Positions 1,938 through 42,427 of a stretch of DNA of 64,000 bases are shown here, piece by piece. Made by a program: the position numbers and the translations under genes. The notes beneath the pieces are model-generated. The model was not told the DNA's origin. It saw only the letters and a list, made by a program, of their open reading frames with translations, and did no database searches. The stretch spans positions 868,001 through 932,000 of the forward strand of contig OZ024762.1 of NCBI GenBank assembly GCA_964016885.1, read 5' to 3'. How positions within the stretch are numbered: position 1 is the first letter of the stretch; each line of letters opens with the position of its first letter. Source of the stretch: Eledone cirrhosa (Eukaryota).

Positions 1938-2282
1938 TAGAGTGTATATAAACATGAATAGTATATATATATATATATGTCTAGAGTGTATATAAACATG
2001 AATAGTATATATATATATATTATATATGTCTAGTGTAGTATATATAAGGCAGAAGTTAATAAAATGAAGTGTGATCTTTCGTTTTTCAGCTAAATTAATA
2101 TATATGTATATGTGATTGTATCAATATGATTTCTCAAGAATGAAACAGTTCTAGTCCTGTAGAATCTCATTTATATATATATAAGTTTATCCCGGGTTCA
2201 ATCGGTGGTAACCACAGTAAGGTACTCAATACATTAGTAGATGATGATTTCTCCCGAATGAAACGGTATTAGTCCTGTAGAA

Positions 2283-2316
<34 letters not shown>

Positions 2317-2436
2317 GAGGGTAATATTAAATATTATCCAATTACAAGTATGAGAATAACTCGATGTAAAATAAACAATCCAGAACCGAAATAAATAATC
2401 AAAGAGTGTTTAGAACATTTAATATCACTTACGATC

Positions 2437-2496
<60 letters not shown>

Positions 2497-4487: not shown

Positions 4488-4525
<38 letters not shown>

Positions 4526-7500: not shown

Positions 7501-8434
7501 CCACGGCAAAAAAGCACCCAGCACTCACTGTAAATGAGGTTGGTGTTAGGAAGGGCATCCAGCTGTAGAAATCAAGCCAGAATCAGATCCCGTCCCACCC
7601 TTGCAAGCAGGGAAAAGTGGACGTAAAATGATGATGATGATGATATATATGTATTTATATATATATTCTGAATGGAACTAGTTGTTGAAACGGCAAGAGC
7701 TCAGCTGTCGTGCCTCATATCTTTATATATATATATTGGTCATGAACTCAGCAGACAGCTAGAAGTTGAACAGAAAAACATGAAGAAAAAATATGAATTA
7801 CTTTTTTTGTTTTGATTCATTGATTTACTCTGGGTATATCAAAAAGTACTCACGATTACAAATCCAGTTCTCTCACCAATCAGCCACACGCCTTCACTTT
7901 TGTTATATATCAGTTATTAATTATTCCTTCTGTTTTCTCTACGTTGTTCCCAGAATATTACAGTTGGCAATGGCAGGGTGAAGATGGCCGCTGGGAGATG
8001 TATTGTATCCCGTCCAGTCTGGCTTTAGAGAAGGCCTTCAGGAAGGCCATGCCAACGGTGGACATTGTAACAAGTAACCAGTCATACATGATTGACCTTC
8101 ACACCCTGAAACAGTCCAACGAGGTGGACAATATTATCTCATCAGTGCAGAGAATCAAGTGTAAGTCAACTTTTTATCTCTTAACTTCCTCTACCTCCTC
8201 CTGTAGCACAGGCGGGCGGATGGAGTCGTTGGCAACAAGCTAGGAGTATTGGTGGGAGAGCATCACTTGCTGTGTAGTTAGTTACTATGATGATATCTAT
8301 CTGTCTTTCACATACAGTCTCTCTGTATTTCTCTCTCAACATTTCACATGGGGAAAAAATAGTTTCGGTTTACGAAAATTTCAAGTGACGAACAACCTTC
8401 AGGAGTGAATTAAGTTTGTGAACCGAGGTTCCAC

Positions 8435-8466
<32 letters not shown>

Positions 8467-11400
8467 ATCATTTCATTTTACGTCCGCTTTTCCCTGCTTG
8501 CAAGGGTGGGACGGGAACTGATTCTGGCTTGATCTCTACAGCTGGATGCCCTTCCTAACACCAACCTCATTTACAGTGAGTGCTGGGTGCTTTTTTGCCG
8601 TGGCACCTCCACGACTACTTTGCAGTGGAATGATAGGGACCCCCAGTCCCTATCATCTCATTTCTACAGCTGAGTAAACTGGAGCAATGTGAAATAAAGT
8701 GTCTTGCTCAAGGAAACAACACATCACCCGGTCTGAGAATTGAACTCACAGCCTTTCGATTGCAAGGCCAATGCTCTAACCACTGAGCCATGTGCCTCCA
8801 TGATATATATATATGTGTATATGTGTATCCCGGGTTCAATCGGGGGTAACCACAGAAAGGTAGTCAATACATAGCAGAGTATAAATTTTTAATATAGAAA
8901 TGACAGTCGGCTTTCCTGATGATTTCCTTTGAATGAAACAGTTCTAGTCCTGTGGAAGCCATTTCTTTATATATATATATTTACATACACAGTTATAATA
9001 TACATATGCCAAGGCCTCCAGCATGGCCACAGCCATTATACTAGAGAGAAACAGAACCCATTAATGTTTCAATGAGAGGTTTACTGTTTGTCTTCTCTCC
9101 CTCACTCTCCTTCACCCCCCTCACACTCCTTCATCCCCTCTCTCTCACCCCACAGGTGGAAGCTCCACATCTTCAGCTGACGCAGTCTCCGACTCCCGTA
9201 GTAGCAGTCGCAGCAGTCGCAAGACAAGTGCAGCCCAGCCTCAGGCGACGACAAACCGGAAGAAAACTGGGAAGCAGAGCGGTCCATCTTCGGGAGATAA
9301 CAAAATAAAGAAGGAATTGCCTGAAGAGAATGGACACAGCAACGAGGACAGCAAGGATAGTAAGTGGTCGTTCTATTACTGAACCTTTAGAATATATCTG
9401 GTCATATTTGACCAGAATTCTCTCACCTCTTCCTGTTCAAACCAACCATATCTGGCCAGAATTGTTTCACCTCTTTCTACAGTTACTCATACTGATAAGT
9501 TATTATTGTTCTCAAAATAAATATGAAAATCTTCAATATTATGTGAAATAAAATGTTTACCATGACAATACAATGTTAAATATAGAGTAATGTAATTGCT
9601 AAAGGGTTAAAGCTTTCTTCTTTCTAATTTCATTTCCTCCATAACATGTTTGATAGCTTTACCTGGTCAAATGTTTCACTTTGGGGGTGAACATTACACC
9701 TGTTTCACTTTGGAGGTGAATATTACACCTGTTTCACTTTAGAGGTGAATATTACACCTGTTTCACTTTGGACATGAAATTCATATTTCCTGTTGTGGTT
9801 GATATGTTTTGAATGAATACGGCCTTAAAAATGGGTGGAAATTGGTAAAAACATTGTTATGTAATGGAGTTGTGAAACAAAAACTATTCTAAACGACACT
9901 TAAAACATTTTAATTACCAGAATATTAAAACTTCATAAATATATTCTCTACTCATGAGAATATCAAAACCTCACCATGTAAACATGTGTTGACTTACAAA
10001 CGACGTTAGGATTTTTACATATTAGTCAGATATAAAATAGTTGGGGACGGGTCAGCTTATATTTGAGTCAATACTGTCCCCATTGATGATAATAAATTAC
10101 TGTATATTTCAGTAAAAACAGTTGTGGTCAAGGGAAAGGCCCCAGTTGATAGTGAATGTCCAATGTTGCGTCGTGTCCATGTCTTCACACAAGGAAATGA
10201 TGTATGGGACTGCATGCTAAACCAGGTAAAATTTTCTATTTTACACTTAAAACTTTCCATATTGTCCAATAATGCATTTTTGCATATGTGTATGTATATA
10301 TATATGTATGTGTATGTATATATATGTATGTGTATATATATGTATGTGTATGTATATATATGTATGTGTATGTGTATATATATGTATGTGTATGTATATA
10401 TATGTATGTGTTGTTTTAACATCCACTCTCCCTGAGATATTCTTTTCTCCTCTCCTCTCTAGACCAATGCACTTAACAACAACAATAAGTTCTACTTGAT
10501 ACAACTTCTCCAACAAGACAGTAAACCTAATTACTACGTGTGGTTGAGATGGGGCCGTGTTGGCTATAAAGGTCAGACCAACCTTGTCAACTGTGTCTCC
10601 AACTTAAACAGTGCCATTGATGTTTTCACCAAAAAGTAAGTTAGATATTGTTTTGTTTTTGTTATTGAACCCTAAACTATGGAAAATAATTGTTTGGTTA
10701 TTGAACCCTAAACTATGGAAAATAATTGTTTGGTTATTGAACCCTAAACTATGGAAAATAATTGTTTGGTTATTGAACCCTAAACTATGGAAAATAATTG
10801 TTTGGTTATTGAACCCTAAACTATGGAAAGTTTAGAAGATAACAGAGGTGATTATATAAAATAATGGTGGAAGGTTTTGATAAATGTAAACAGTTTAAAA
10901 CATAGTTTAGTATCTTAGAACCAATGTCATAGAACCAGGTGGTTTGATATCTTACAACTAATGTCAGTTTCAGGTGGTTTGATGTACTAGAACCAGGGTC
11001 ACGGTCAGATGGTTTGATGTCCTATAACCAAGGTCAGGGCCAGGTGGTCTGGTATCTTAGAACCAATGTCAAGGTTAGATGGTTTGTTTAATTATATTTC
11101 TCTTTTCTGTTTTCTTGTAGATTCCAGGATAAAACCAAGAATGAATGGAGTGAACGACACAAATTTAAAAAGGTCTCTGGAAAATATGATTTGATCCAAA
11201 TGGATTACAGTACCGAGGTAATCATCACCTTCATCTTCATATCAACCTTAATGCACCGAAACCATAGAGACCTCCAGAGGTTATCTGGTGAGATGGGATT
11301 GTCCCTCTTTCAGGTGTTTTTTCCATTGTCTTTGTCTTGTGATCTCCATATTTTGAATTTGCAACAAGAAAGATGAAAAAAACATACCTCAACACTTAAT

Positions 11401-13458
11401 TTTAAATCTTTAATTCTTAGTTTTTAATCCTTATTAATTCTTTTTAATTGTAATACTCAGCATTTGATAAGATTAATTTTACTAATACATCGAAACCGGT
11501 TATACTTCTCTTTTTTTTTTAAAGAATTGTCCTTCTCATTTTTTCAATAATGTCACTTTGATGAATCAAAGAAAGGAAAAACAGACCCTTAAATATATTT
11601 TCAGTGCTATTTCTAATTTCACCCTCTCCCTCTCTCTCTCTATATATATATGTATATATATATGACAGAATATTTGTTGTTTATGTTTAACAGGGAAAAG
11701 ACGATGTTGATGGTGTCGACATAAAGAAAGAAAGTATTTGCAAGGTTCCTGATTCTACACTCGATCCATCTCTACAGGTAAGTCTTTGATATTGCAACAC
11801 TCCCCTCTCCCTCTCAGGGATATATGTTTGTTGCTGGTATAGGAGCGATTTCATACCCAAGAAATGCTGTATGTCAATACGCCACCCCTATAACTATATA
11901 GATATGTGCGTGTGTGTGTGTGTGTATATATACAGGGAGTGTAACTTGGAGTTACTGTAGGTTCACCCGGGTGAGCACTCGATGTTTAGGTTCACTTCAG
12001 TGTCGAGGTGTAGAGCTAGACAGAGTCTATTATAGTGAAGACAACAAGAACGATTGGTTACTCCTCCATCACATTGACGCGAGTCACCAACCAATAAATG
12101 TAATGAAGGAGTAACCAATCGTCCTTGTTATCTTTTCACTATATATATATATATATATCGTGAAGGCGCATGCCTTAGTGGTAGGAGCATTGGGCTTGTA
12201 ATCAAAAGGTTGTGAGTTCAATTCTCGGACCGGGTGATGTGTTGTGTCCTTCAGCAAGACACTTTATTTCACGTTACTCCAGTTTACTCAGCTGTAGAAA
12301 TGAGATGATAGGGACTGGGGTCCCTATTATTAATTACCCAAGACACCTCCAACGAGATATACCTTGGAGGAGGCCAGCTAAACCTGTATAGGTGTGAGCT
12401 GTCACACACACTCATACACATAGGTGTGAGCTGTCACACACTCACACACATATATATATATATATATATCCAAGAGATGTCAACATGAATGGACCTGTTA
12501 TTTTTATCTAAAGACATTTTTTCCGTCCCCTCAATCTATCTTATTTCTCATTCTTTCTTCTGATGAAGGACTTGCGTCTGAAACGTTAAGACCCTCTTCC
12601 TGTTATTTCAAGCGTTAACCTAATGTATCCCTTCCATATACTGTACCGATTGTGTTGTTATTTCTGTTTACTTTTTACACACGTACATATATATAACGCT
12701 TATGTGGACCTCTCAAATTCGTTGGATTTTCACCCCAAAACTAGATATAAACCCAAAGTCTACCTGAGCTTCCACCAGGAAATCTTTCGTATCACTGAAA
12801 TTTTCTTTGCTTCTTACATTTATATATATATATATAATAAGCTATAATATCCATGTTCTGCCTGCTTATCTACACTATAAGTTACTTTATCCATGTTCTG
12901 TTGCAGAAATTAATTCAGTTAATCTCTGACATTAACACAATGAAAGAAACTGTCGTTGAAATGAAATATGATGCACAGAAAGCTCCTCTCGGTAAGTTGT
13001 TGTTGTTGTTACTGTTGTTGTTGTTGTTGTCAAACATTGTTCATATCAAATAAAAATCCATCAATGGATGATCAATTTTATAATTAGTTCCTTTAATTAA
13101 TCTTTGCCAGGTCGTTTAACAGAGAAACAGATCAATGCTGGTTACCAGGCCCTGGAAAAAATTGCTGATTGTATAGAAAAGAAAAACTTTGGTACCAGCC
13201 TCACCTCAGCATGTGATGAATTTTATACAAGGATTCCTCACACATTCGGGTATGTTTCAACGTCATCATCATCGCTGTTTAATGTCCATTCTTCCATCCT
13301 AGTGTGGGTTACACAAGTTGTTCTGTTTTGGGCAATGCTAGGTCAGGTGACCTTGTCTTGCTCATACAGAACTGATTTTGGCTGGGTTTCTACACCTAGA
13401 TGCCCTTCTTAACACCAACTTAATTCTTTGAGTATGTATATATAACAATATTTAGGGC

Positions 13459-13491
<33 letters not shown>

Positions 13492-16400
13492 ACAATATTT
13501 ACGGCATATATATGTATATATAACAATATTTAGGACATATATGTATATATAACAATATTTAGGGCTTATATATATATGTGTATATAACAATATTTAGGAC
13601 ATATATATATGTGTATATATAACAATATTTAGGACATATATATGTATATATATCAATATTTAGGGCATATATATATATTCAAAAAGAGGGAGTGCACAAA
13701 CGACAGACAGTCCCATCTCCTCAGTCAACCTCTGGAAATTACTATAGTTTCAGTATATTAAGGTTGAAACCATTAATTCTAGTATACATTGGGACATAAC
13801 GACACATGTAGAGACATATATGTATCTAACCTGTTACAACCATCTAGCTAAGGCCATGCTGGGGCACCGCCCTTTAAAATAATAGCAGTCATCCCTGGTG
13901 GGTAATTAATTTAAAAAAATTGGTGAAGACAATGGAAAAACAGACAATATGCAAGGCAGTCCCTTTTCATCAGTCAACCTCAGGAGCTCCTTGTGATTTC
14001 AGTTCATTAAGGTTGATACCATTAGCTCCAGTGTACATAGAACAGTAGCAAATGGACACAAGAAAAGATGATGGATCTTCCAGTTATTTACAAATAAAAT
14101 ACAAATTACTACAAACCAATGTACTGCAAATGTGAAGAAGAGATGGAAATAAGGCCCAATATATTAGCCCCTACATGGACACACTGCAAGAGGAAGACCG
14201 AGGTTAACATGTTGATGCCCTAAGGACAGACACTGGTCTGTTGGAGACCCAGGACATGACAGCGATAATGAGGGACAGAGACTGCTGGAGAGAACTCGTC
14301 CATGGATCTCGGGAATTTTACCCGCCCTAGATATATATATTAGCCAAGAAAGTAAGTACAGAATATGAAGGTGGAAGAGATAGGTTGGACATTAGTCCCT
14401 AAATAGACCGACACGAGCAGAGATAGAAAGTGAAGAAAATACAGGCGATGTAATGTTTAAAATAAATCAATTTGATTTAATGACCCACGCAGCTAAGCTC
14501 TTATAATCTATCTATTTATCTGTCTATCTATCTATCTATCAGTCTCTATCTATATACCTATCTATTCTCGTCCTCCAGTATGAGGAAGCCTCCAGTCATC
14601 CGTGACAAGGAAACAGTTAAAGAAAAGATCCAGTTGCTTGAGGTGAGTTTTATTTTGTTAAAATGTCCCGGAAGCAGAGCAAATGAATGACTACCTCTGA
14701 TATATCCACACTGTAAAGTGGTTAGTGATAGGAAGGGCATCCGACTGTAGAGATCTTGCCAAAGGGTTGGGAGGAGCGTCAGTTATGTAAAAGACGTGAC
14801 AACCTCTCCTGAACGTTGGAACGTGAGACCCCTCCCCCCCTCCTCATCAACCTCCTCCACTACATCATCATCATTACCATCAGCATATATATATATATAT
14901 ATCATCATCATTTAACGTCCACTTTCCACACTAGCATGGGTTAGATGGGTTGTCTCATTTGAGGCAAGTTTGGGTTGGGTGACCATGTCTTACTCATACA
15001 GAACTGTTTCTGGCTGGTTTTCTACAACTGGATGCCCTTCCTAACACTAACCACATTTACAGTGTGGACTGGGTGCTTTTTTTGTGTCACCTACACAACC
15101 ACATTTACAGTGTGGACTGGGTGATTTTTTTTGTGTCACCTACACAACCACTTTACAGTGTGGACTGGGTGCTTTTTGTTGTGTCACCTACATGACCACT
15201 TTACAGTGTGGACTGGGTGCTTTTTGTTGTGTCACCTACATGACCACTTTACAGTGTGGACTGGGTGCTTTTTGTTGTGTCACCTACATGACCACTTTAC
15301 AGTGTGGACTGGGTGCTTTTTGTTATGTCACCTACATGACCACTTTCAACTTTGTTTCTTATTTATTTGACAGGCGTTAGGAGATATCGAGATTGCCATC
15401 AATATCTTGAAGCAAGGTGACATGTCAGAGAACCCTGTGGACAGAACATACAAATCACTGGAGTGTCACCTCACACCTGTCACTTCAGATCATCCAGATT
15501 ATAAGGTAAGACACTCAATCACTGGAGCGTGACCTCACACCTGTCTCTTCACATTATAAAGTAGGGCACTAGTCACTTGAAAGAGGGGATAAGGGTGAGT
15601 AGGGGTATATTGTTGTTACTGTTGTTATTGATATAAGCAGAAATGTATGATGGGGAGAACAAATTTTATTCCTCACACACATTTATATATGTGTGTGTGA
15701 GGATAAAGATCCCATAACTCCTTGTGAAGTGACAGAGGCCCCGTCATACGGTGTGTCTAGGGCAGTTTTAAACCCGGCGGAGCCGAACCCTCTCCAGGTC
15801 TGAACACAGCCGATTATTTTTTTTATATAAAGGAAGAATCGACCCCAGTACTTGACTGGTACTTTTTTATCGAGCTTGAAAGGATGAAAAGCAAAGTTGA
15901 CCTCGGCGGGATTTGAACTCGGAGCAGGCAATGAGGTGGGGCGAATTCCATAAAGCATTCTATCTGATGTCTTAACGACTCAGTCAAATACACAAGTGTT
16001 GTCATCATCATCATCATATGTCCGCTTTTCCCTTCTTGCAAGAGTGGGACGGGTCCTATTCAGCACAGCATCTCTCCACTTGTCACGGTCCTTTGTCATC
16101 TCCTCCGTGAGTTTCAGCGATCTGAGGTCTGTTCTCACCACTTCCGCCCATGTTTTTCGTGGGCAACCTCTACTGGGATTTCTTGGCACTTCTTTACCCA
16201 CCGGTCATCCTCCATGCGCATCACATGTCCATACCATCTCAGTCTTCTCCCCCGCACACTACAACTTATCCCTCTTATACCCAGTTTCTTTCTCAACTCG
16301 TCTATGCTTGGTGTTCACACACATTACATTGCACATCCATTGGAGCATGCTTGCTTCATTTCGCTCCAGCTGTCGCATATCCTCTGCAGTTGCTGCCCAT

Positions 16401-17870
16401 GTCTCACTACTATGCAGCATCGCGCATCGGCATCATATAACCAGCCTTTCGTATGCAGGGAGAAACCCTTCTTTGTAAGCAGAGGAAGCAGCTTCCTAAA
16501 CTTCTTCGAACCAGTCCTTATTCTAGATACTATGGCCTCGGAACACCCCACTCCCATGCTAATCTGATCACCTAGGTACCGGAAGCTATCAACCACTTCT
16601 ATAGAACCCACCTGCATTTGAAACGTGTCTATCACTGCGATTACTAATTAAAATGTTGTGTTGTGTTTTATTTTTCAGCTCGTCAAGGAGTATTTACTCA
16701 ACACTCATGCCATGACACACAACAATTATAACATGGAGTTACTTGAGGTTTACAGTTGTAGGAAAGAGACCAAGTTTATCGACTGTGGTAACAGGTTAGT
16801 ACTGAATACTTACTAATACTACTGCTACCATCATAACCATATCACTGCCTATGTCACTACACTACACCACGACACCACCATACCACTGCCTATGTCACTA
16901 CATCGCACCCTACACCACGACATCTCCTACACTAGGCCACACCTTATGCTCCCTATACCCCCTACACCACATCACCCCCTATGTCACTACACTACACCCC
17001 CTACACCACTCCCATCATTGGTTCAGTTCCTCAATATGTTTGTTATTTGTATTTTCCAGAATGTTGTTATGGCACGGCTCCCGACTAACCAACTGGGTTG
17101 GAATACTCAGCCGTGGACTCCGTATAGCCCCACCTGATGCCCCCATCACAGGTTACATGGTGAGTATTGATCTTTGTATTGCTATACACCCGAGGTTCTC
17201 AAGGCCATGTAATACATTCAGTGACCCCCAACTCTAGTTGCAGGGCGACCTGCCTACACACAAATTGTAAATAATATATATATAGAGATTATTATATATA
17301 TATAAAAAGGAAAATGTCTGTCTGTATGTGATGTGTTTCCATCTGATTTGTTCAAATGTGATACATAGGTTATTTAGCTCCCAGAACATGTCAACATGTA
17401 GCTTAACCCTTTAGTGTTCAAACCGGCTAAAACTGGCCAGAATTCTCTACCTCTTTCTGTTGAAACTGGCTGTAACTGGCCACTCATACTGATGTTAAGG
17501 TATTGTTCTCAAAGGGAATACTTTCAAAATCTCATAGATTCGATATTATGTAAGATAATTATGTGAGGTAAAGCATTTACCATGAAAATATAATAGTATA
17601 TATAGAGTAATGTGAATGCTAAAGGGTTAAACCATGCTCTCCTCTTAAAATACCAGAGTTCTGGGGCTATTTAAAGATGGGGTGAGGCAGGTCTTCCATG
17701 TCAATATATAGTTTAAATCTTTCTCTCCCCTAAAATAGCAGAATTCTAGGGTTATTTAAAGACAGGGTGAGGCAGGTCTTCCATGTCAATATATAGTTTA
17801 AATCTTTCTCTCCCCTTAGCTTATCTGGGAGATCAGTAACCACTGCTTCAGTACTCACTTGGTAATGGAA

Positions 17871-17922
<52 letters not shown>

Positions 17923-20411
17923 TTGCTGGCCTGTCTAGGAGGTCAGTAGCCCTTCTTCAGTCCTGTGTTGGTCTAATTGCTGATTCTACATTTTCTCCAC
18001 AGTTTGGTAAAGGAATCTATTTTGCTGATATGTCCAGTAAGAGTGCCAACTACTGCTTTGCTACAAAGAAAAAGAACATCGGTCTCGCACTTCTCTGTGA
18101 GGTAAATCTTGTTTTAAATCTTACTAACTCCTGTTTACTACTTCAGTGTGGGGTATATATTATATTTAAGGAAATGTGGGGTATATATTATATTTAAGGA
18201 AATGTGGGGTATATATTATATTTAAGGAAATGTGGGGTATATATTATATTTAAGGAAATGTGGGGTATATATTATATTTAAGGAAATGTGGGGTATATAT
18301 TATATTTAAGGAAATGTGGGGTATATATTATATTTAAGGAAATGTGGGGTATATATTATATTTAAGGAAATGTGGGGTATATATTATATTTAAGGAAATG
18401 TTGTGGGGTATATATTATATTTAAGGAAATGTGGGGTATATATTATATTTAAGGAAATGTGGGGTATATATTATATTTAAGGAAATGTGGGGTATATATT
18501 ATATTTAAGGAAATGTTGTGGGGTATATATTATATTTAAGGAAATGTGGGGTATATATTATATTTAAGGAAATGTGGGGTATATATTATATTTAAGGAAA
18601 TGTTGTGGGGTATATATTATATTTAAGGAAATGTGGGGTATATATTATATTTAAGGAAATGTGGGGTATATATTATATTTAAGGAAATGTGGGGTATATA
18701 TTATATTTAAGGAAATGTTGTGGGGTATATATTATATTTAAGGAAATGTGGGGTATATATTATATTTAAGGAAATGTGGGGTATATATTATATTTAAGGA
18801 AATGTGGGGTATATATTATATTTAAGGAAATGTGGGGTATATATTATATTTAAGGAAATGTTGTGGGGTATATATTATATTTAAGGAAATGTTGTGGGGT
18901 ATATATTATATTTAAGGAAATGTGGGGTATATATTATATTTAAGGAAATGTGGGGTATATATTATATTTAAGGAAATGTTGTGGGGGTATATATTATATT
19001 TAAGGAAATGTGAGGTATATATTATATTTAAGGAAATGTTGTGGGGTATATATTATATTTAAGGAAATGTTGTGAGGTATATATTATATTTAAGGAAATG
19101 TTGTGGGGTATATATTATATTTAAGGAAATGTTGTGGGGTATATATTATATTTAAGGAAATGTGGGGTATATATTATATTTAAGGAAATCTTGTGGGGTA
19201 TATATTATATTTAAGGAATGTTGTGGGGTATATATTATATTTAAGGAAATCTTGTGGGGTATATATTATATTTAAGGAAATCTTGTGGGGTATATATTAT
19301 ATTTAAGGAAATCTTGTGGGGTATATATTATATTTAAGGAAATGTTAAAACTTTATCTTTAACCAGGTGTCCCTAGGAGAATGTCATGAGCTGTTAGAGG
19401 CAAACTATTATGCCGATAGACTACCTCCAGGGAAAAGCAGTGTTAAGGGTCTCGGTCGTGTGGCCCCACACCCTACCACATATCAAACAATGTAAGTATT
19501 TTTTCAAAATTTAACCCTTTTTGTATCAAACTGCCTAAAATTGCCTCTGTTACCTCAATACAACTATTTATTTTAAAATGTTTAAATATTATTTAACAAA
19601 TGAGGTCGTTAGGTGTCACAACAAAAAAAAAACACAGTCCACGCTGTAATGTGGCCGTGTAGGTAACACGGTAAAAACCTCCCAGTCCACACTGTAAACG
19701 TGGTTGGTGTTAGGAAGGGCATCCAGCCGTAGAAAACCCGCCTGACAGTCCTATACGAGCAGGACAACAAATCTTGCCTCAAGGGGGAAAACTCCCGTCC
19801 AAACCCATGCAAGCATGGAAGATGGACGTTAAACGATGATGATGATGATATATATATATACATTTAAATTAAATCTGCCAGCCAAACAACTCTTCTCCAA
19901 TTGCTCTCTAAGCCCCTCTCCATGGATTCTCTTGAGAGTGGCTTTTAAATCACAAAATATTTGAGATCAATAAAATAGCTAAGGTACAATTCTACCGTTC
20001 TCAGTCCCTTTATTCTCTATAACTCCTGTTACTTTGGCACTTTTTATCTCGCACACATTGTCAGGCTTCCAGATATTTAAACTTATTTAAATTTGTATTT
20101 CTTATTCCACAATGCTTCAAGCAAACTGCAACACTTTGTTTTATATATGTATATATAATACTTTGTTATATAAGGAATTTGTAGTTTACTTGAAGCATTG
20201 TATCTGATATTTCTTCTTCCGAGGAAGAAGAGATATTAATCTCAAAATATCAGGATATAGGAACAAATTAAGGTAAAAAAACAACCCCTGTTTCTTACCA
20301 TTTAATTATTCTCTGTCTAAACCTACATTGTCGTGGCTTTCAAACATCGAATATTTCACATATATATATATACACACACACACTTACACACATATATATA
20401 TATACATACTT

Positions 20412-20462
<51 letters not shown>

Positions 20463-20694
20463 AACCCACAAATTCATCTTTTTTACTTCTCTAGGAGGTT
20501 TGTTGTTTTAGTTCTAATCTTTGCCATTGTATCGTTGCAGGAAAGATGGTACCATCATACCGTATGGCAGAGGTACAGACACCTGTGTTGCTAATCCATC
20601 TGGCTACACATTAAACTACAACGAGTATGTTGTATACGACACAAAACAGGTGAAAATGAAATACCTGGTCAAGATACGCTTCAACTTCAAATAA
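1791..20694 (+). CDS. PARP2: PARP2-like poly(ADP-ribose) polymerase, WWE-WWE-WGR-regulatory-catalytic, 744 aa, 18 coding exons
   Basis: Exons with GT-AG boundaries and consistent phase: 1791-1809, 6289-6479, 6900-7032, 7954-8160, 9156-9359, 10113-10225, 10463-10635, 11121-11217, 11694-11777, 12907-12991, 13111-13249, 14579-14642, 15374-15505, 16679-16794, 17060-17159, 18003-18101, 19367-19491, 20541-20694 (sum 2235 nt, ends TAA). Motifs: [26 protein letters not shown] (WGR), [56 protein letters not shown] (H-Y-E triad). The first 19-nt coding exon (MPKRKQ) is inferred from phase only and is less certain. Confidence 0.93.
2497..2900 (-). mobile_element. 3' fragment of an L1/Tx1-like LINE
   Basis: Minus-strand translation [29 protein letters not shown] resembles Tx1-type ORF2 C-termini. 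It is followed by a UTR ending AATAAAGAAAT and (TA)n. Confidence 0.55.
3712..3828. repeat. Near-perfect ~58-bp-arm palindrome
   Basis: ATAGGAAAAGGTATGACCCCGACGGCAGAG...TATTTCTGG-A-CCAGAAATAG...CTCTGCCGTCGGGGTCATACCTTTTCCTAT with a few mismatches and a 1-nt centre. Confidence 0.9.
4960..5140 (-). mobile_element. tRNA-derived SINE (copies ~15840-15980, 42740-42930, 47365-47585, 48495-48645, 51800-51960, 59870-59970)
   Basis: Shared core GAGTTCAAATCCCGCCGAGGTT.ACTTTGCCTTTCATCC...GGGGTCGATAAAATAAAGTACCAGT, with a B-box-like GTTCAAATC. Confidence 0.8.
6508..6848. repeat. 51-bp minisatellite in a PARP intron (~6.5 copies)
   Basis: Unit GTGCTGGTGTCATGATAAAATACACCCAATACACTCTGTAAAGTGGTA. Confidence 0.9.
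7355..7645 (+). mobile_element. tRNA-headed SINE with (ATG)n tail (copies ~8465-8800 on -, 12160-12330, 44760-44890; tail parts at 7175-7330, 14900-15080, 19610-19850, 62060-62245)
   Basis: GGAGGCACATGGCTTAGTGGTTAG (A box)...GAGTTCAATTCTC (B box)...CCTTGAGCAAGACA...GGAAGGGCATCCAGCTGTAGAAA...GGACGTAAAATGATGATG. Confidence 0.8.
8829..8965 (+). mobile_element. Short (TA)n-associated repeat with hammerhead-like core and inverted tail; other copies ~2125-2290, 4185-4305, 5511-5655, 63645-63820
   Basis: GGCUUUC-CUGAUGA-UUUC(CUUY)GAAU-GAA-ACAG(UUCUAGUC)CUGU-R-GAAGCC. Copies share the tail ...TAATGTATTGAGTACCTTACTGTGGTTACC...GATTGAACCCGG, often in an inverted plus forward arrangement. Confidence 0.6.
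10663..10829. repeat. 36-bp minisatellite (~5 copies)
   Basis: Unit TATTGAACCCTAAACTATGGAAAATAATTGTTTGGT. Confidence 0.95.
12556..12591 (+). ncRNA. Minimal hammerhead ribozyme in a Penelope-like pLTR remnant (~12480-12680)
   Basis: UCUU-CUGAUGA-A-GGAC(UUGC)GUCU-GAAACGU-U-AAGA, with a palindromic ACGU stem III. Same family as 60916-61280. Confidence 0.7.
15050..15346. repeat. ~45-bp minisatellite
   Basis: Unit ACCACTTTACAGTGTGGACTGGGTGCTTTTTGTTGTGTCACCTACATG. Confidence 0.9.
16002..16636 (-). mobile_element. RTE-like LINE 3' fragment
   Basis: Broken frames: [14 protein letters not shown]...[16 protein letters not shown] and [16 protein letters not shown]...DRDKWR, followed by a (GAT)n tail. 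Confidence 0.85.
17403..17630. mobile_element. TTAA-flanked MITE (piggyBac-like ends); related copies ~9380-9610, 21380-21607, 44125-44310, 49376-49560, 53170-53650
   Basis: TTAA-CCCTTTAGTGTTC ... GAATGCTAAAGGG-TTAA terminal inverted repeats. The internal sequence is shared with the other copies. Confidence 0.75.
18148..19346. repeat. 29/32-bp minisatellite filling a PARP intron (~40 copies)
   Basis: Unit TGTGGGGTATATATTATATTTAAGGAAA(TGT). Confidence 0.97.
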
Positions 20695-21649
20695 TTCCAC
20701 GACAATTCCTAGCAGACAATTTCTGTCATCCGTATATTATATACATTTATGTGTTGGTGGTGGCTGTCATTTAGCCCCGGTCCAGATCCAGGCCGTTCAG
20801 CAGGCAGACCTATGATGGATGATCACCTTTCCAGCATTGTTTTAAGATGAATTCTATTTTGAATTACATTTGCACTACATGTCTTATTCAGACAGTTGGA
20901 TGTGGCTGCTATTTCTGCTACATCAAGTAACCATGTATGTATGAATATATATATGTGTGTATATATATAAAGATAGGTATACAGATATATATATACATAT
21001 AATAAATGAGAGATGGTTTTATTTGTACATCTTCATTTTATTATCTAACATATATATATATATATATACATACATATACAGATATATATATGTATACAGA
21101 TATATACATATACAGATATATATATACTTTATTATGGCTAAATGATTCAACATAATGTAACTGTTTTTCCAACATACATTCTCCCATACACACAATATGT
21201 ATTGCCTGATGACCCTATTAGGTGAAACTCCACAGTCTTCACTGAGCCATAATAAAGAATATATAAACTACCCCAGTATTGAGTTCTTATTCTCACATGA
21301 GATATATATATCATCATCGCTTTTATATCCATTTTTCCACGCTGTTACAGTTATGCCAACCTCCCTAATGTGACAGTGTTAACCTCACCCCTTTCTGTTC
21401 AAACCAGCCGTAACTGGCGACTCATACTTATATTAAGGTATTGTTCTCTAAATAAATAACAAAATCTCATAGATTTAATAGTATGTGAAGCCTTTACCAT
21501 GAAAATACAATAATATATATAGAGTAATGTAAATGTTATGTGAAGTAAAGACTTTACCATGAAAATACATTCGTAAATATAGAGTAATCTAAATGCTAAA
21601 GGGTTAAAGTTCTTAGCCCACTGCTGTACATCAGTTCTTCAGGCCATAA

Positions 21650-22827: not shown

Positions 22828-24225
22828 ATATATATACTGGTTTGAATCGCCTGTATAAGGTTAGACTTTTCTTCTTGTTTATGTTTCCTAATATTACATA
22901 TTGATTGCTCGATTTCTATCGCACATCAGCTTTTATATGCCTCGCTATGTATATATACAATAAACTGGTTGAGTTCTTCTTTTGGTGCAAATTCTTTTCT
23001 TTGAACTCAACCACTAAATCACACTTTTTGTCTACTATAGAAGTCTTTATTTTCATTACAGGCAAAGTGTGACTAACAAGAGCTGCTATGATATCTTATC
23101 CAGTGGTAATGGTTACTACACAATGTATAGACTGATCTAGTGACTTTGGTGGTCTGCTGATGAAGTGCAGCTTGCCTGGTTACATGACTTTCTGAACATT
23201 ACGGATTTAATATCTGCGTTTGTGAAGTTATGTTGCACAGGGTTCAAATTCTACCGAGGTCACTAAAAAAAGTACCAGTCTAATATTGGGGTCAAATCTT
23301 CTATATCTCTTTCTCACTTCCATTCTCTGAAATAAATCTGTTGCATTCAGACCCGGAGAGGAAATAGGCTCTGCCAGTTTTTAAGAAAATGCCCTATGTT
23401 CACAGCCAATACACTCAAGTGTTCTTTAAAAACTCTTTATTTCATGTTGATGAGAGTAGGTACCAGCAGAGTTATTTATATGTTGATTCCATATACAGAT
23501 CTGTCTAAGGCTATGTTACCATCTTGAAGTAAGTATATTTACCTATATATTAATTGTTCTGAATAGAGGCATCAGTCCTCTCCATTCTCCTCTATGGAGC
23601 AGAAACGTGGCCCCTCACAAAGAGGATTGACAGCTTCAATAGCAGAGCCTTGAGGACCATCACATTCGTAACAAGGTGGTGCATGTGCATCAGCCTATAG
23701 CTTCCCAACTCATGTGCTGGTACGGACATGTTCTTTGCCAGATACCTGTGCCTTACTCTCGTTCGACGCAGACCCACACGGCTGGATGACATCAGGGAAG
23801 ATCTCTGGTGGACCTGGTTGGCTCTACCCACGATGATACTTTGAGATCGCTGGCTTTGGATGACTCCAGCCTCGTCGAGCAAGAAGAATAGATGTACAAA
23901 ATACTAGGTGTTTCTCAGTTAATATACTCGAATATAAGGTGACCTTATCTTGTCTGAGAAACCTTATTTACGTAGAATGTGAAGTTGCTGAAAATATTGA
24001 CAGGTCGACCCCCTTCTATTTGTGTGTATCTTGTTATTTCATTTCATTTTTACATCCGCTTTTTCCCTGCTTGCAAGGGTGGGACGGGAACTGATTCTGG
24101 TTTGATTTCTACAGCTGGATGCTTGGCACCTCCACGTCCACTTTGCAGTGGAATGATATAGACCCCAGTCCCTATCATCTCACTTCTTCAGTGAAATAAA
24201 GTGTCTTGCTCAAAGATACAACACA

Positions 24226-24700
24226 CGTTATGTATGTACAAAATACTAACAGTTCCTCAATGGCTATATACCCTGTTATATATGTACAAAATACTAGTAG
24301 TTCCTCAATGGCTATATACCCTGTTATATATGTACAAAATACTAGTAGTTCTTCAATGGCTATATACCCTGTTATATATGTACAAAATACTAGTAGTTCT
24401 TCAATGGCTATATACCCTGTTATATATGTACAAAATACTAGCAGTTCCTCAATGGCTATATACCCTGTTATATATGTACAAAATACTAGCAGTTCCTCAA
24501 TGGCTATATACCCTGTTATATATGTACAAAATACTAGTAGTTCCTCAATGGCTATATATCCCGTTATATATGTACAAAATACTAGTAGTTCCTCAATGGC
24601 TATATATGTACAAAATACTAGCAGTTCTTCAATGGCCATATACCCTGTTATATATGTACAAAATACTAGTAGTTCCTCAATGGCTATATATCCCGTTATA
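24226..24700. repeat. 48-bp minisatellite (mirror at ~34108-34660)
   Basis: Unit GTTATATATGTACAAAATACTAGTAGTTCCTCAATGGCTATATACCCT. Confidence 0.95.
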
Positions 24701-24839
24701 TTTATATATATAGAAACGGAAAGAAAGCGAGATAACACTCGGAATATGTCCTGTTATCTCGCTTTCTTTCCGTTTCTTTTTTTTTTAAAAAAGAAAGAAA
24801 ATGTTAGCTATAAGTATGACTATTTGACTCTGTAGAATT

Positions 24840-25002
24840 GCGGCTTGTGCGTGGCGCTGCACGTAGCGTTTCTGGCTTCGCTGTCGTACTTCGGTATGGC
24901 TGACCACTCGATCGTGTCTGAAGTTCGAATCGTTGCGGGGTCGGCCGGGACCGTTGCAGGCTGGCTTTATGCTGGCCTGCTCTCCCGCCTCGCATTAGTT
25001 TT
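24840..25002 (+). ncRNA. Candidate structured Pol III small RNA, copy 1 (family unidentified)
   Basis: GC/CpG-rich island. TATAAGTA at 24809, A-box-like TGGCGCTGCACG at 24852, B-box GTTCGAATC at 24923, T4 at 24999. Hairpins GUCGUAC-UUCG-GUAUGGC and GCAGGCUGGC-UUUAU-GCUGGCCUGC rely on G-U pairs on this strand. Confidence 0.5.
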
Positions 25003-25202
25003 GGCCAAAAAATTCGATGAGAGTTATCTCCCCCTGAATTGAATTATTTGCCCTTTGTTGACATTGAGCTACTTCCGGTTTGTGGAAATCTACTTCCGTT
25101 GTTGTCATTTCTCTTCAATGTATTGAAGAAGTAACATCGTTTTATTTACTCTGGGACTATTACTGACATTGGTTTGGATCTTACTTTCGTGTTGAGAGGT
25201 TT

Positions 25203-26392
25203 GTAGAGTTCTATTTTAATACATTGCTACCATATACACACCTAACCTTCTCCATTATATACACTCACTCCTGTAAACAGTGTAGAGTTCTATTTTAATA
25301 CATTGCTACCATATACACACCTAACCTTCTCCATTATATACACTCACTCCTGTAAACAGTGTAGAGTTCTATTTTAATACATTGCTACCATATACACACC
25401 TAACCTTCTCCATTATATACACTCTCTCCTGTAAACAGTGTAGAGTTCTATTTTAATACATTGCTACCATATACACACCTAACCTTCTCCATTATATACA
25501 CTCTCTCCTGTAAACAGTGTAGAGTTCTATTTTAATACATTGCTACCATATACACACCTAACCTTCTCCATTATATACACTCACTCCTGTAAACAGTGTA
25601 GAGTTCTATTTTAATACGTTGCTACCATATACACACATAACCTTCTCCATTATATACACTCACTCCTGTAAACAGTGTAGAGTTCTATTTTAATACATTG
25701 CTACCATATACACACCTAACCTTCTCCATTATATACACTCACTCCTGTAAACAGTGTAGAGTTCTATTTTAATACATTGCTACCATATACACACCTAACC
25801 TTCTCCATTATATACACTCTCTCCTGTAAACAGTGTAGAGTTCTATTTTAATACATTGCTACCATATACACACCTAACCTTCTCCATTATATACACTCTC
25901 TCCTGTAAACAGTGTAGAGTTCTATTTTAATACATTGCTACCATATACACACCTAACCTTCTCCATTATATACACTCACTCCTGTAAACAGTGTAGAGTT
26001 CTATTTTAATACGTTGCTACCATATACACACCTAACCTTCTCCATTATATACACTCACTCCTGTAAACAGTGTAGAGGTCTATTTTAATACATTGCTACC
26101 ATATACACACCTAACCTTCTCCATTATATACACTCACTCCTGTAAACAGTGTAGAGTTCTATTTTAATACATTGCTACCATATACACATCTAACCTTCTC
26201 CATTATATACACTCACTCCTGTAAACAGTGTAGAGTTCTATTTTAATACGTTGCTACCATATACACACCTAACCTTCTCCATTATATACACTCACTCCTG
26301 TAAACAATGTAGAGTTCTATTTTAATACATTGCTACCATATACACACCTAACCTTCTCCATTATATACACTCACTCCTGTTAACAATGTAGA
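25203..26392. repeat. 79-bp tandem array (~15 copies; mirror ~6 copies at 33117-33594)
   Basis: Unit GTAGAGTTCTATTTTAATACATTGCTACCATATACACACCTAACCTTCTCCATTATATACACTCACTCCTGTAAACAGT. Confidence 0.97.
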
Positions 26393-26574
26393 TATTAAGA
26401 CATAAAACCCAGTAATGTCTCCTATGTACACAAGTCTCTCTAGGATATACAGACATGTTTTAACTCCATTTCTGATATTCAGACACTACACTATACACTC
26501 TCTCTCTATAAAGTAGACATTGTAATGTTTTAACCTTTCTTCTCAGATATTTGAGACATAAAACTGAACTTATC

Positions 26575-26781
26575 TATATTTACCTACAATATAACCCACC
26601 TCTATATATATCTACCTACAGTATAACCCACCTCTGTATATATCTACCTACAATATAACCCACCTCTATATATATATCTACCTACAATATAACCCACCTC
26701 TATATATATATCTACCTACAATATAACCCACCTCTATATATATATCTACCTACAATATAACCCACCTCTATATATATATCT
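26575..26781. repeat. ~33-37-bp minisatellite
   Basis: Unit TCTACCTACAATATAACCCACCTC(TA)n. Confidence 0.9.
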
Positions 26782-26891
26782 AATTACCTTTTCTATTGTG
26801 TTTATGTTGAGTTTGATACCCATCTCTAGAGGTGTATAAGAAACTATATAATAGAGACACATAAATATTGCTAGGTACTGTAAATACCTGT

Positions 26892-27200
26892 TCCTTACAC
26901 CAGGAGACTGTATTGTATACACACAAACAGTATATATCAATATAAGTGTATATATACATACAGACCTACATTTAATAATATAAATATAGCTGTAAGTTAA
27001 GAGACAGTATATATATATCAATATAACTTTATATATAGTGTTGTCTTAATGGAATAAAAGGAAGCAGGTGTTTCTATATATATATATAGCTGTATGTCTG
27101 TCATTGTTTTTATATTCATTAACATCTCGTTTGTTTCTTTCCAGGTATGTTGAAGATCTACGTCAGGCCACCACAGTGTGTATATATATATACACAGATT
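26892..27200 (+). repeat. Direct duplicate of window positions 1-335
   Basis: Near-identical from TCCTTACACCAGGAG to CACAGATT, apart from (TA)n length. Confidence 0.95.
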
Positions 27201-32959: not shown

Positions 32960-35053
32960 TTGTCTCAAATATCTGAGAAGAAAGGCATTTAGAATGAATT
33001 TCTAATAAAAAAAACATTACATTGTCTACTTTATAGAGAGAGTGTCTAGTGTAGTGTCTCAATATCCTAGAGAGACTTGTACATAGGAGACATTACTGGC
33101 TTTTATGTCTCAATATCTACACTGTTTACAGGAGAGAGTGTATATAATGGAGAAGGTTAGGTGTGTATATGGTAGCAATGTATTAAAATAGAACTCTACA
33201 CTGTTTACAGGAGTGAGTGTATATAATGGAGAAGGTTATGTGTGTATATGGTAGCAATGTATTAAAATAGAACTCTACACTGTTTACAGGAGTGAGTGTA
33301 TATAATGGAGAAGGTTAGGTGTGTATATGGTAGCAATGTATTAAAATAGAACTCTACACTGTTTACAGGAGTGAGTGTATATAATGGAGAAGGTTATGTG
33401 TGTATATGGTAGCAATGTATTAAAATAGAACTCTACACTGTTTACAGGAGTGAGTGTATATAATGGAGAAGGTTAGGTGTGTATATGGTAGCAATGTATT
33501 AAAATAGAACTCTACACTGTTTACAGGAGTGAGTGTATATAATGGAGAAGGTTAGGTGTGTATATGGTAGCAATGTATTAAAATAGAACTCTACAAACCT
33601 CTCAACACGAAAGTAAGATCCAAACCAATGTCAGTAATAGTCCCAGAGTAAATAAAACGATGTTACTTCTTCAATACATTGAAAAAAAATGACAACAACG
33701 GAAGTAGATTTCCACAAACCGGAAGTAGCTCAATATCAACAAAGGGCAAATAATTCAATTCAGGGGAGATAACTCATCGAATTTTTTGGCAAAAACTCAT
33801 GCGAGGCGGGAGAGCAGGCCAGCATAAAGCCAGCCTGCAACGGTCCCGGCCGACCCCGCAACGATTCGAACTTCAGACACGATCGAGTGGTCAGCCATAC
33901 CGAAGTACGACAGCGAAGCCAGAAACGCTACGTGCAGCGCCACGCACAAGCCGCAATTCTACAGAGTCAAATAGTCATACTTATAGCTAACATTTTCTTT
34001 CTTTTTTAAAAAAAAAAGAAACGGAAAGAAAGCGAGATAACAGGACATATTCCGAGTGTTATCTCGCTTTCTTTCCGTTTCTATATATATAAATATAACG
34101 TGGTATCTACTAGTATTTTGTACATATATAACAGGGTATATAGCCATTGAGGAACTACTAGTATTTTGTACATATATAACAGGGTATATAGCCATTGAGG
34201 AACTACTAGTATTTTGTACATATATAACAGGGTATATAGCCATTGAGGAACTACTAGTATTTTGTACATATATAACAGGGTATATAGCCATTGAGGAACT
34301 ACTAGTATTTTGTACATATATAACAGGGTATATAGCCATTGAGGAACTACTAGTATTTTGTACATATATAACAGGGTATATAGCCATTGAAGAACTACTA
34401 GTATTTTGTACATATATAACAGGGTATATAGCCATTGAGGAACTACTAGTATTTTGTACATATATAACAGGGTATTTAGCCATTGAGGAACTACTAGTAT
34501 TTTGTACATATATAACAGGGTATATAGCCATTGAAGAACTACTAGTATTTTGTACATATATAACAGGGTATATAGCCATTGAGGAACTGCTAGTATTTTG
34601 TACATATATAACAAGGTATATAGCCATTGAGGAACTGCTTGTATTTTGTACAAATACAAGATATACTCAATAGAAGGGGGTCGACTGGGGTCATCCTAAG
34701 ACAGCGATCTCAAAGTATCATCGTGGGTAGAGCCGACCAGGTCCACCGGAGATCTTCCCTGATGTTATCCAGCCGTGTGGGGTCTGCGTCGAACGAAAGT
34801 AAGGCACAGGTATCTGGCAAAGAACATGTCCGTACCAGCACATGAGTTGGGAAGCTATAAGCTGATGCACATGCAGCACCTTGTTATTGAAGCTGTCAAT
34901 CCTCTTTGTGAGGGGCCACGTTTCTGCTCAATATAGGAGAATGGAGAGGACTGATGCCTCTATTCAGAACAATTAATATATAGGTAAATATACTTACTTC
35001 AAGATGGTAACATAGCCTTAGATAGATCTGTATATGGAATCAACATATAAATA
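32960..35053 (-). repeat. Right arm of large inverted duplication
   Basis: Mirror of 23473-26558 with indels and different array copy numbers. Confidence 0.92.
33791..33954 (-). ncRNA. Candidate structured Pol III small RNA, copy 2
   Basis: Reverse complement of 24840-24995, identical by eye, ending in T5. Confidence 0.5.
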
Positions 35054-39676: not shown

Positions 39677-42427
39677 CAGGGGTCGGCAACCTTTTGGAGA
39701 GAGAGGGCCAAACAGCTATGCAGTCTCATGGAGGAGGGCCATGTCATTAAATCTGTAAATAAATTTTCTGGAGGTTTAAAGCAAAACAAGGAATTTAATA
39801 TAATTTTATTATACAAGGCCCCTTATTTTACTGCAGGAATAACAAAAACAAAAAGAAAAAAAACTACAAACATATTCAACAAAAAAAAAAAGCAAATTCC
39901 TTATTTACTGCAGGAATAACAGAAAAACAACTACTATTACAATCAACAACAAAAAAAGCAAATTCCTTGTTACAAACGAAATACAGTTAGAAATGGTAAA
40001 TGATTTATTGAGACACTTGTTTCTGCTTATTGTGCGATAACTTCACATCAGGTGAAATATTTGTCGATGACAGGAGCAAAACATCATCCAGATGGTCGTC
40101 ACGCAACCTTGTTCTTAAATGACTTTTAGTATATTTCATTTTGGAAAAAAGTTGTTTACAAGCATATGTACTTCCAAACAATGATATCATCAGTTTCGCA
40201 TTGGTCAAGATGTTTTTATATTTTCCGCTTGCCAATATATATTTCTTGTAGAAGTCAGCAGTGGATTTGAACTGAAGTTTCGATTTCAAAGATTTGTCGC
40301 ACTGTGAGTCAATTAACTCCAACTGATATTCTTCTGCCACTTGCTCCACATCTGTTTCGTAAGGAGTACCAAATAACTTAAATAGAATTCCATATTGCCG
40401 GAAGTCAGCAAAACGAGAGGAAAACTCGCTTCTCAAATCCTTAATAGAGCTCACAAAGATGTCTGGTATTATATCTCTCTTGTGATTTTGGAGACTTGGT
40501 AAATGAGAGTAGTTTCCTTTTTGAAGTTGTGACACAGTTGAAGTTTTCTCTCAAAAGCAGTAATTTGATCAAACATCTCAAATACAACCTTGTTCTTTCC
40601 TTGAAGCTCAAGATTCAAAGTGTTCATGTGGGTCGTGATGTCCACTAAAAAAACTAACTTGACAACCCACTGTGGATCCTGAAAGTAAGAATTATCTTGG
40701 TCTTTGCTCTCTAAAAATATAGAAATCTCTTCTCTCAATGCATATACTCGTTCTATCATTTTTCCGCGGCTAAGCCATCGGACATTTGAAAAATGTGTAA
40801 GGTCGCCATACTCTGCTTCAATTTGTTTTAGAAATTCTTGAAACGGGCGGTGATTTAGTCCTCTTGACAGTATAAAATTCACTGTTTTCACGACCACTGC
40901 CATGATGTCCTTAAAATTCAGTGACTTTGCACATAATGCTTCTTGATGAATAATGCAATGAAGTTTGATTAGTTTTTGCTCAATACCGATGTGGTTTTGG
41001 AGCAATGCAACAAACCCCTTTTTCTCTCCAACCATTGCTGGTGCTCCATCTGTGATTACTCCAGAAAGCTTTGATAAATCCAGATTCATTTCGGTAATCC
41101 ATTTTATTATGCTTTCCAAAATATCTGCTCCAGTGCTAGTGTCCTTCATAGGAATCAATTGTACAAATTCTTCCACAATATCAAATGTTGGTGTTACACC
41201 CCTCACAAACACTGCAAGTTGACAAGTATCCTTCATATCTGTGGTTTCATCGATAGCAGATTATTTAAAATGCCCTCCAAGCCACTTCTGACTTTTGCTG
41301 CCAGCTCTTCAATTCGCCTTGTTACTGTTCTTGCCGATAAGTTGATCGCAGAAAATAATTCCCTTTTTTCTGGACAAACATCTGCTACCTTCAACAATAA
41401 TTCTTTGAAGAAATCTCCATCAGTAAAAGGTTTCATCCTTTCTGCAATTAGTTTTGACACCTCGTAGCTAGCATGAGTGTTTTCGGTCACTTTCTTCAAC
41501 TTTTCTAGTGAAAAAGGATGATTGGTTTGTTACATTATTTCTCAGCCGTGCAACTTCGTTTACTCGTGCTTTTCCAGTAAAACTGTTGTAATGATTATGA
41601 CGAGTTTCATAGTGCCGTTTAATATTTGAAACTTTCTTCACGGCAATGGTTTCTTGATAAATTAAGCAAACACATTTTCCGAAGTGCCCAAGTGTCCAGC
41701 CATCGTTAAAAGTTCGGCCCTCGAAATCCACTTTTCTTTTCTTAGTTTCCATGGGCTTGTTTTTGTTCAAACAAAAAAGATTTATGGGAAGGAAAAAGAA
41801 TAAAAAGTATAATAATCAGAATGAATAAATAAGAAACAATGAAAACAAATGTAAATGCAAATACAGTAATGCGATAAAATATGATAATTGTGAATAAATT
41901 ATATAAAACCAGGTTTCTAACAACGTTGTTAGATCAGGGTTGGCATTTGTTTTTTAAAACCACTAATTCTAATAATAATAATTCACACAATTTATCACAA
42001 ATAATTAAATAAACGTTATTATCGAATAAAGATACCTACTGTATAGTTGTTATACCACCAGACAACAAACTGAAATGAAAATACTCTAGGGAGGAGGGAA
42101 CGAAGTAATTTTTCCAAAGACAACTTTACCTAATCACAGGAAATAATAATACAGGTGATATAATGCTTGGCGGAAAACCCAGAAAAAGATGGATAAGAGG
42201 AAATAATAATAAATGGAAAATATAATAAGGTTACAAAGGTATCTGTAAATATATACGGTATGAGCAGCGATTTGTGATGGGCATCAGGTCAGCCCAACCT
42301 TGAAGTGAACTACTGTATCTGTATTCGATACTAATTAGATAATTAGTGTCCAGTGTAAGATGGCGGACCGGACAAAAATCACTCGAGGGCCGGATGTGGC
42401 CCACGGCCCGGGGGTTGCCGACCCCTG
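39677..42427 (-). mobile_element. Full-length hAT DNA transposon (Charlie/SPIN/Buster, GTF2IRD2-like transposase)
   Basis: 15-bp TIRs CAGGGGTCGGCAACC / GGTTGCCGACCCCTG. Imperfect 8-bp TSD GTTTATAC / GTTTAGAT. Internal transposase remnant. Confidence 0.95.
40005..41752 (-). pseudogene. Frameshifted hAT transposase
   Basis: Four overlapping ORF pieces: METKKRKVD...NIKRHYETRH; KPFTDGDF...LSARTVTRRIE; QLAVFVRG...ITDGAPAMVG...HCIIHQEALC...VRWLSRG; FGSTYACKQLFSKMK. At least three frameshifts. Confidence 0.92.

Follow-up and report, generated by a model that had tools for sequence, protein, structure and literature searches.

What does a short GC-rich island in an otherwise AT-rich region of the Eledone cirrhosa genome encode? 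The window, by which we mean the whole stretch of 64,000 nucleotides that was analysed, has on average 35% GC and 2.4 CpG per 160 nt. The island (24841-25000) has 61% GC and 18 CpG in 160 nt, and together with its copy it has the highest CpG count in the window. The first-pass annotation had picked out this CpG-rich segment of about 160 nt, which is real, and had proposed that it is a conserved small RNA gene with signals for RNA polymerase III (Pol III). We conclude that the island is probably a structured, multicopy Pol III-type gene and a new variant of vault RNA. In its full form, our preferred reading is that the island represents a multicopy Pol III gene family for a folded, vault-type RNA of about 160 nt whose predicted partners are the TROVE domain of TEP1 and, through it, the vault. 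We give this reading a probability of roughly 0.4.

The elements of the putative gene lie on the plus strand as listed here, together with the corresponding transcript of the second copy in the window.

24809 to 24816, plus strand: TATA-like box TATAAGTA, at -31/-24 of G24840 (position convention as in the excerpted text of PMC7279448)
24840 to 25002, plus strand: predicted Pol III transcript of copy 1, about 163 nt, its start placed from the TATA-like box and its end from the T run
24852 to 24863, plus strand: A-box-like 12-mer, one mismatch to the consensus, 59 nt 5' of the B box
24873 to 24893, plus strand: second A-box-like 11-mer (one mismatch, 39 nt 5' of the B box), 2 nt, then GTACTTCG, a vault-RNA-type motif according to excerpts of PMC8824774
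24922 to 24932, plus strand: B box, core GTTCGAATC
24981 to 24989, plus strand: pyrimidine-rich 3' motif TCTCCCGCC, which resembles the 3' motif of Fasciola vault RNAs
33791 to 33954, minus strand: predicted Pol III transcript of copy 2, with one difference from copy 1, near the 3' end, a continuous 10-bp closing stem and a T5 run

The TATA-like element 31 nt 5' of G24840, the A-box-like 12-mer at 24852, the B-box core and the terminal T run (T4 in copy 1, starting at 24999) had all been described before, and all were recovered. A-box-like 12-mers are weak evidence alone, as four perfect ones are present elsewhere in the window. The two island copies account for both occurrences of the strict B-box core in the window; a looser consensus has 29 occurrences there. 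The position of a TATA-like box at -31/-24 is important for type-2 Pol III genes, according to the excerpted text of PMC7279448, and the promoters of vault RNA genes are described in PMC7058938. We postulate that TFIIIC would bind the internal A and B boxes and that TFIIIB would be placed on the TATA-like box at -31/-24, giving a hybrid type-2 promoter from which Pol III would start near G24840 and would stop in the T run. If the start were set by the second A-like box, the RNA would be about 140 nt long and would have a weaker closing stem.

The island folds more stably than shuffled versions of itself. Folding of the whole island gave a z-score of -3.07 for copy 1, with 0 of 200 shuffles as good, and of -4.0 for copy 2. 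Among 12 GC-rich control windows, a z-score below -1.5 was obtained only for a simple TGG repeat. Two parts of the fold can be distinguished.

24872 to 24944, plus strand: vault-like core, a long hairpin in which the side with the A-like box and TACTTCG pairs with the B-box side; it folds on the plus strand only and has a rival fold in the full RNA
24947 to 24986, plus strand: second domain, made of a 4-bp stem, an internal loop and the 10-bp hairpin 24956-24980 (z-score -4.4)

The individual stems proposed in the first-pass annotation fared unevenly. The 10-bp hairpin at 24956-24980 is firm, with a pair probability of 1.0 in the ensemble. The C(UUCG)G hairpin is predicted, at a probability of about 0.5, but a competing fold at about 0.44 is 0.2 kcal away; the vault-like fold has a probability of only about 0.44 in the full RNA. 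The proposed pairing of the ends through UGCGG and UCGCA has a probability of only about 0.08, and it is between 24842-24851 and 24991-25000 that the ends are closed, with 0.8-0.9 for the inner pairs. The claim that several stems form only on this strand is true of the core 24872-24944 (z-score -2.62 on the plus strand versus +0.53 on the minus strand) but not of the whole island (-3.07 versus -3.03). We propose that the paired 5' and 3' ends would form a panhandle, predicted by folding as a 10-bp plus a 3-bp closing stem, and that this panhandle would enclose the vault-like core and the extra hairpin domain.

This layout can be compared with that of known vault RNAs. According to excerpts of PMC8824774, vault RNAs are 80-150 nt long and are conserved only at box A with its flanking TTACTTCG and at box B, which is reduced to GTTC; they have a panhandle, their T run follows within 150 bp, and ordinary homology search for them is impractical. 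The same excerpts report vault RNAs from Lottia (a mollusc), Helobdella and Macrostomum, and five copies in Fasciola, four of which are clustered in both orientations. In the five Fasciola sequences (Table S9 of PMC8824774), box B is separated from the closing strand by a hairpin and a pyrimidine-rich motif.

The A and B boxes of a vault RNA are present in the island, with A-like boxes at 24852 and 24873 (one mismatch each) and the B box at 24922. From the second A-like box onwards the order is GTACTTCG at 24886, B box, hairpin 24956-24980, TCTCCCGCC at 24981, closing strand and T run. GTACTTCG matches 7 of the 8 bases of the vault TTACTTCG, with a different first base, and is 2 nt behind the second A-like box, which puts the TACTTCG motif about 47 nt from the predicted start. 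The T4 or T5 run is about 110 nt downstream of the box A motif, within the vault limit of 150 bp. In the excerpted account of PMC8824774, the lophotrochozoan vault RNAs (Fasciola, Lottia, Helobdella) share with the island the A-like box followed by TACTTCG, the B box, the hairpin and the pyrimidine-rich motif, and also the paired ends, the T run, an upstream TATA-like element and clustered copies in both orientations. Within the window, the two copies alone contain TACTTCG followed by a B box (2 matches against 0.06 expected). Among 20,000 dinucleotide shuffles of the island, of which 1,269 had a B box, 4 showed the same order. When one mismatch was allowed, 72 of 30,000 did, and when the 3' motif was required in addition, 0 of 30,000; these figures overstate the case somewhat, as the motifs were picked after several families had been considered.

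The island also differs from vault RNAs in several ways. The predicted length of about 163 nt is outside the 80-150 nt of vault RNAs, and five Rfam scans covering the island gave no match to Vault (RF00006), either at the gathering score or at E values up to 10. About 30 extra bases, with another A-like box, are present at the 5' end, and the hairpin domain is larger. TACTTCG is 2 nt further from the A-like box than in a mouse primer sequence (in the excerpt of PMC11185573), and the family has many more sequence classes than the one to five genes per species reported for vault RNAs in the excerpted literature. Because the island departs from the family both in length and in the Rfam scans, we file it as vault-like and not as a vault member. 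The vault-like anatomy suggested in the first-pass annotation gains support from TACTTCG after an A-like box, from the Fasciola-like 3' motif and from variation among the paralogue classes that is lower in the core than in the 3' flank, but not from length or from Rfam.

Vault RNAs bind through the TROVE domain of TEP1 (PMC7916137, PMC12547018, both in excerpt). By analogy, we suspect that the island RNA would bind this domain and hence the vault particle, which is the least certain step of our proposal. Four genes for MVP are reported from the mollusc Aplysia in the excerpted text of PMC9334734. The MVP shoulder domain was also matched in bacteria, in 16 of 151 sampled genomes of the phylum of the myxobacterial genome G001 (L027, L028 and others), mostly in frames of 800-970 aa; these bacterial MVP-like proteins looked too distant and were rejected as a route to the cephalopod MVP. 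No cephalopod vault RNA, or RNA matching the island, was found in the literature searched, from which subscription journals are largely missing.

Could the island belong to another RNA family? The five Rfam scans covering it gave no match up to an E value of 10 for Vault, SRP, 7SK, Y RNA, the U snRNAs or RNase P/MRP, and produced only sub-threshold chance matches. The earlier statement that there is no tRNA cloverleaf is correct: ARAGORN found 0 genes, and the sole Rfam tRNA match is at 8733-8790. The loop words of the SRP helix-8 motif (GGAA, GAAA, AGCAG) are absent from the island, also as described before. 7SL RNA, the RNA of SRP, is about 300 nt long, and the island is about half that length. 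The two have in common a Pol III-type gene and a few short words: GATCG, TGTC, AAGTTCG and GTTGC come in the same order, by eye, in the island and in a human 7SL S-domain probe (in the excerpt of PMC6336407). The likeness to 7SL that had been noted earlier extends to these ordered words but not beyond them, as only a gapped match can be made and the SRP features tested are absent. Searches of other collections were equally sparse. A motif scan of metagenome contigs gave 22 matches, all 22 of which are pattern words only, in unrelated coding-like DNA; viral contigs gave 0 matches; blastn against phages gave 2 short chance matches only; and genome contigs gave 3 exact 20-mer matches in bacterial assemblies, which were taken as chance.

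One alternative is that the island belongs to a lineage-specific family of Pol III RNAs unrelated to vaults, like rodent 4.5SH RNA, made from multicopy units of several kb. Such a family might descend from 7SL or a tRNA, and its RNA might associate with dsRNA-binding or La-type proteins or have little function. The evidence from promoter, terminator and fold would fit it equally well, as would the missing Rfam Vault match and the word order in common with the S-domain probe (PMC6336407, in excerpt). According to excerpts of PMC7279448, the 4.5SH genes are present in hundreds of copies, in tandem units of 4-5 kb, and have a type-2 Pol III promoter with a TATA-like box at -31/-24, much like the layout of the island. 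However, 4.5SH RNA is a rodent derivative of 7SL/B1, whereas the island has no Rfam match and its copies are dispersed and inverted in the window, not head to tail. Descent from 7SL would require several gaps in what is a by-eye word match, with no SRP family matched, and descent from a tRNA is opposed by the lack of a cloverleaf. A family unrelated to vaults also leaves TACTTCG before the B box and the 3' motif unexplained, and we consider it somewhat unlikely.

How is the gene multiplied? Comparison of the window with itself identified a large duplication around the island and the repeats associated with it.

23473 to 26558, plus strand: duplicated block, copy 1, from window self-comparison
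32961 to 35053, minus strand: duplicated block, copy 2, inverted, from window self-comparison
24227 to 24701, plus strand: 48-bp minisatellite upstream of the island (copy 2 equivalent at 34107-34652)
24712 to 24777, no strand assigned: inverted repeat of 26-28 bp, nearly perfect, which lies 60-125 bp upstream and is found in both copies (copy 2 at 34017-34082)
1 to 301, plus strand: end of a likely third unit, with 99.7% identity to 26892-27192 (the end of an intron-like segment and the next exon-like piece)

The identity of about 300 bp seen earlier by eye is exact, with 0 differences between the copies over 24694-24995 (302 bp). The outer arms had been called clearly diverged, which is incorrect: the flanks are 98.5% identical over 547 bp and 98% identical over a further 651 nt, and the left outer arm has 12 mismatches in about 370 bp. 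The block common to both copies is at least 3 kb long, inverted and about 97-99% alike, and contains minisatellites of 48 bp and 79 bp as well as a fragment that we take to be LINE-like. The near-identity of 1-301 and 26892-27192 indicates that a third unit likely ends at the start of the window. The upstream inverted repeat, just 5' of the TATA-like box, has a folding z-score of -11, and the word GTTATCTC has three occurrences per unit.

Since a block of several kb is about 97-99% alike, most of the identity between the copies reflects recent duplication. The core has fewer differences than the flank (0/295 versus 7 events in 203 nt, Fisher p 0.002) or the left arm (0/295 versus 12/368, p 0.0008), with limits of core and flank that were picked after the data had been seen. 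The low divergence of the core could result from selection or from gene conversion, each of which would be sufficient. Conservation, as claimed in the first-pass annotation, thus stands among paralogues of one organism, but the identity of the two window copies is mostly that of a recent multi-kb duplication. The window also contains several copies of tRNA-related SINE heads or bodies, at 8733-8790 (minus strand), 7357-7420, 24039-24225 and elsewhere; one of these SINEs is an insertion in the left arm that copy 1 has and copy 2 lacks.

The family is larger than the window suggests. We used four public sequencing runs (X1-X4) from one study of one organism, which represent at most two samples, X2-X4 being one sample. 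Contigs matching 24695-25205 with 80-100% likeness numbered 19, 66, 70 and 64 in the four runs, with 24695-24802 skipped as a repeat in the contig comparison. Depths per contig in X2-X4 extended from about 11-21 up to 464-513; summed contig depth is not equivalent to copy number, and only the spread of depths and the number of classes were used. The presence of several classes with very different depths within one sample indicates a multicopy family, which on a rough reading has tens of copies. The two copies originally reported are therefore too few, given the many sequence classes in the run contigs.

All of the classes span 24803-24838 upstream of the predicted start, the island and the 3' flank. 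A retroposed copy would lack the upstream stretch and 3' flank that the classes carry, so an ordinary SINE is excluded, and as far as can be judged from sequence the family is copied as DNA. This bears on a group of readings in which the island is the head of an ordinary SINE, a spliced-leader RNA or part of an rDNA spacer. A and B boxes are features of SINEs, and the family is multicopy as SINEs are. However, the copies and classes have both flanks in common, no A-rich or simple-repeat tail is present in the island copies, and there is no tRNA match, and on these grounds a tRNA-derived SINE was rejected. No Sm-type site was found in the island by the pattern tried, and no rRNA was found in the window. 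These readings are largely refuted, and we consider them very improbable. In our preferred reading, segmental duplication, rather than retroposition, would be the process by which copies of the vault-type gene arise and decay.

Differences among the classes are unevenly distributed. The 34 listed variant positions comprise 6/34 in 24838-24871, 2/81 in 24872-24952, 3/3 in 24953-24955 (an internal loop in both folds), 0/40 in 24956-24995, 2/7 at the transcript end and 21/168 in the 3' flank. None of the listed variants is inside the 10-bp hairpin. Variant sites are less frequent in 24872-24995 than in the 3' flank (5/124 versus 21/168, p 0.012); for the whole predicted RNA the reduction is not significant (11/158 versus 21/168, p 0.10). 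The variant table leaves out rare classes, some of them far more diverged and with altered B boxes, and such diverged, low-depth classes are present in the run contigs. No compensatory change is shown among 14 variant alleles of unknown phase; a pair is lost through 7 of them when they are placed on the vault-like fold and through 6 on the other fold. In the class with changes at 24843-24845, pairing with 24996-24998 would be feasible if the register were shifted.

A further feature lies downstream of the island.

25199 to 27144, plus strand: intron-like segment with the 79-bp minisatellite; GT donor, branch-like site, pyrimidine tract and AG

One X1 contig runs from 25204 into 23 letters that match 27151-27173. 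This join points to a spliced product of the unit or to a retrocopy of it, and suggests either that X1 is RNA or that the contig derives from a retrocopy. The ratio of X2 to X1 depth is 23-43 in five of seven variant classes and 2-3 in the other two, and the high ratios, along with X1 cover of the upstream flank, suggest that X1 is shallow DNA; the run is given no weight here as a sign of expression. Two ACTTCCG motifs, at 25071 and 25092, are presumably ETS-like. A multicopy spliced transcript may start near these motifs (25071-25098), and the island may be part of a longer unit that is spliced. The downstream exon-like piece is present twice in the window, 254-301 being one occurrence.

These observations raise the possibility that the island makes no discrete small RNA. 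It could instead serve a multicopy spliced Pol II unit, as a GC-rich promoter or first exon, or be carried as cargo by a non-autonomous DNA element, with Pol III signals that are incidental or that serve as TFIIIC sites only. The intron-like segment and the join across it, the ETS-like motifs, the homology of the classes well past the island on both sides and the decayed low-depth classes would all be consistent with this. A mobile unit would also account for the long upstream palindrome, the 12-bp inverted repeat that brackets the island and the minisatellites, features that we take to recall Helitron-type non-autonomous elements. On the other hand, a single unit of 160 nt is marked out by the TATA-like box at -31, the A and B boxes, the T run and the closing stem together, and the core varies less than the flank. 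For a mobile unit, there is the additional difficulty that the shared block runs on into an outlying LINE-like fragment and has no terminal inverted repeats at the edges tested; no 10-bp inverted match was found between these outer edges, except one inside a SINE. Segmental duplication therefore fits better than transposition. We regard a Pol II or mobile unit as unlikely, and it is because of the X1 join that we continue to give it this much weight.

If the island does specify a vault-type RNA, the family may have a wider significance. It is possible, though doubtful, that a lengthened, two-domain vault-type RNA has been multiplied in octopods into tens of genes, whose distinct sequence classes escape the Rfam model. 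This would be the first cephalopod vault RNA in the literature searched and an unusually large family, and the loading of vaults or TEP1 by its classes could differ from one tissue to another. What vault RNAs do is not settled, and members of the family are difficult to find beyond the vertebrates. A lengthened, multicopy octopod form would provide a seed for cephalopod searches and natural sequence variants for testing recognition by TEP1, and would show which motifs survive deep divergence. If the RNA is not a vault RNA, the island would still stand for a Pol III-type gene family that is absent from catalogues and whose core shows signs of constraint.

The window contains several other genes and elements. 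A PARP2-type gene with WWE domains and about 20 exons extends from about 1790 to 20695 (plus strand) and ends 4 kb upstream of copy 1; its WWE exon gave two protein matches among 14 candidates, in Octopus bimaculoides (83%) and Argonauta hians (78%), and these matches identify the host as an octopod. The downstream exon-like piece was considered as the start of PARP2 and rejected, since PARP2 has its own start near 1790. The gene was also rejected as the vault PARP, because its catalytic domain is C-terminal, a domain order that we take to set PARP2 apart from the vault PARP. Behind the exon-like piece of the third unit is a 5'-truncated Penelope-like element (330-749, plus strand, and 1099-1127) with a GIY-YIG endonuclease frame (Pfam PF01541, E 2.9e-5). 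This frame is followed by a hammerhead-like core pattern, for which there was no Rfam match. Broken, transposase-like frames at 40005-41815 (minus strand) are presumably of the hAT/GTF2IRD2 type. Lastly, an open frame of 509 aa at 57619-59148 (minus strand), rich in serine and acidic residues, is likely a large coding exon.
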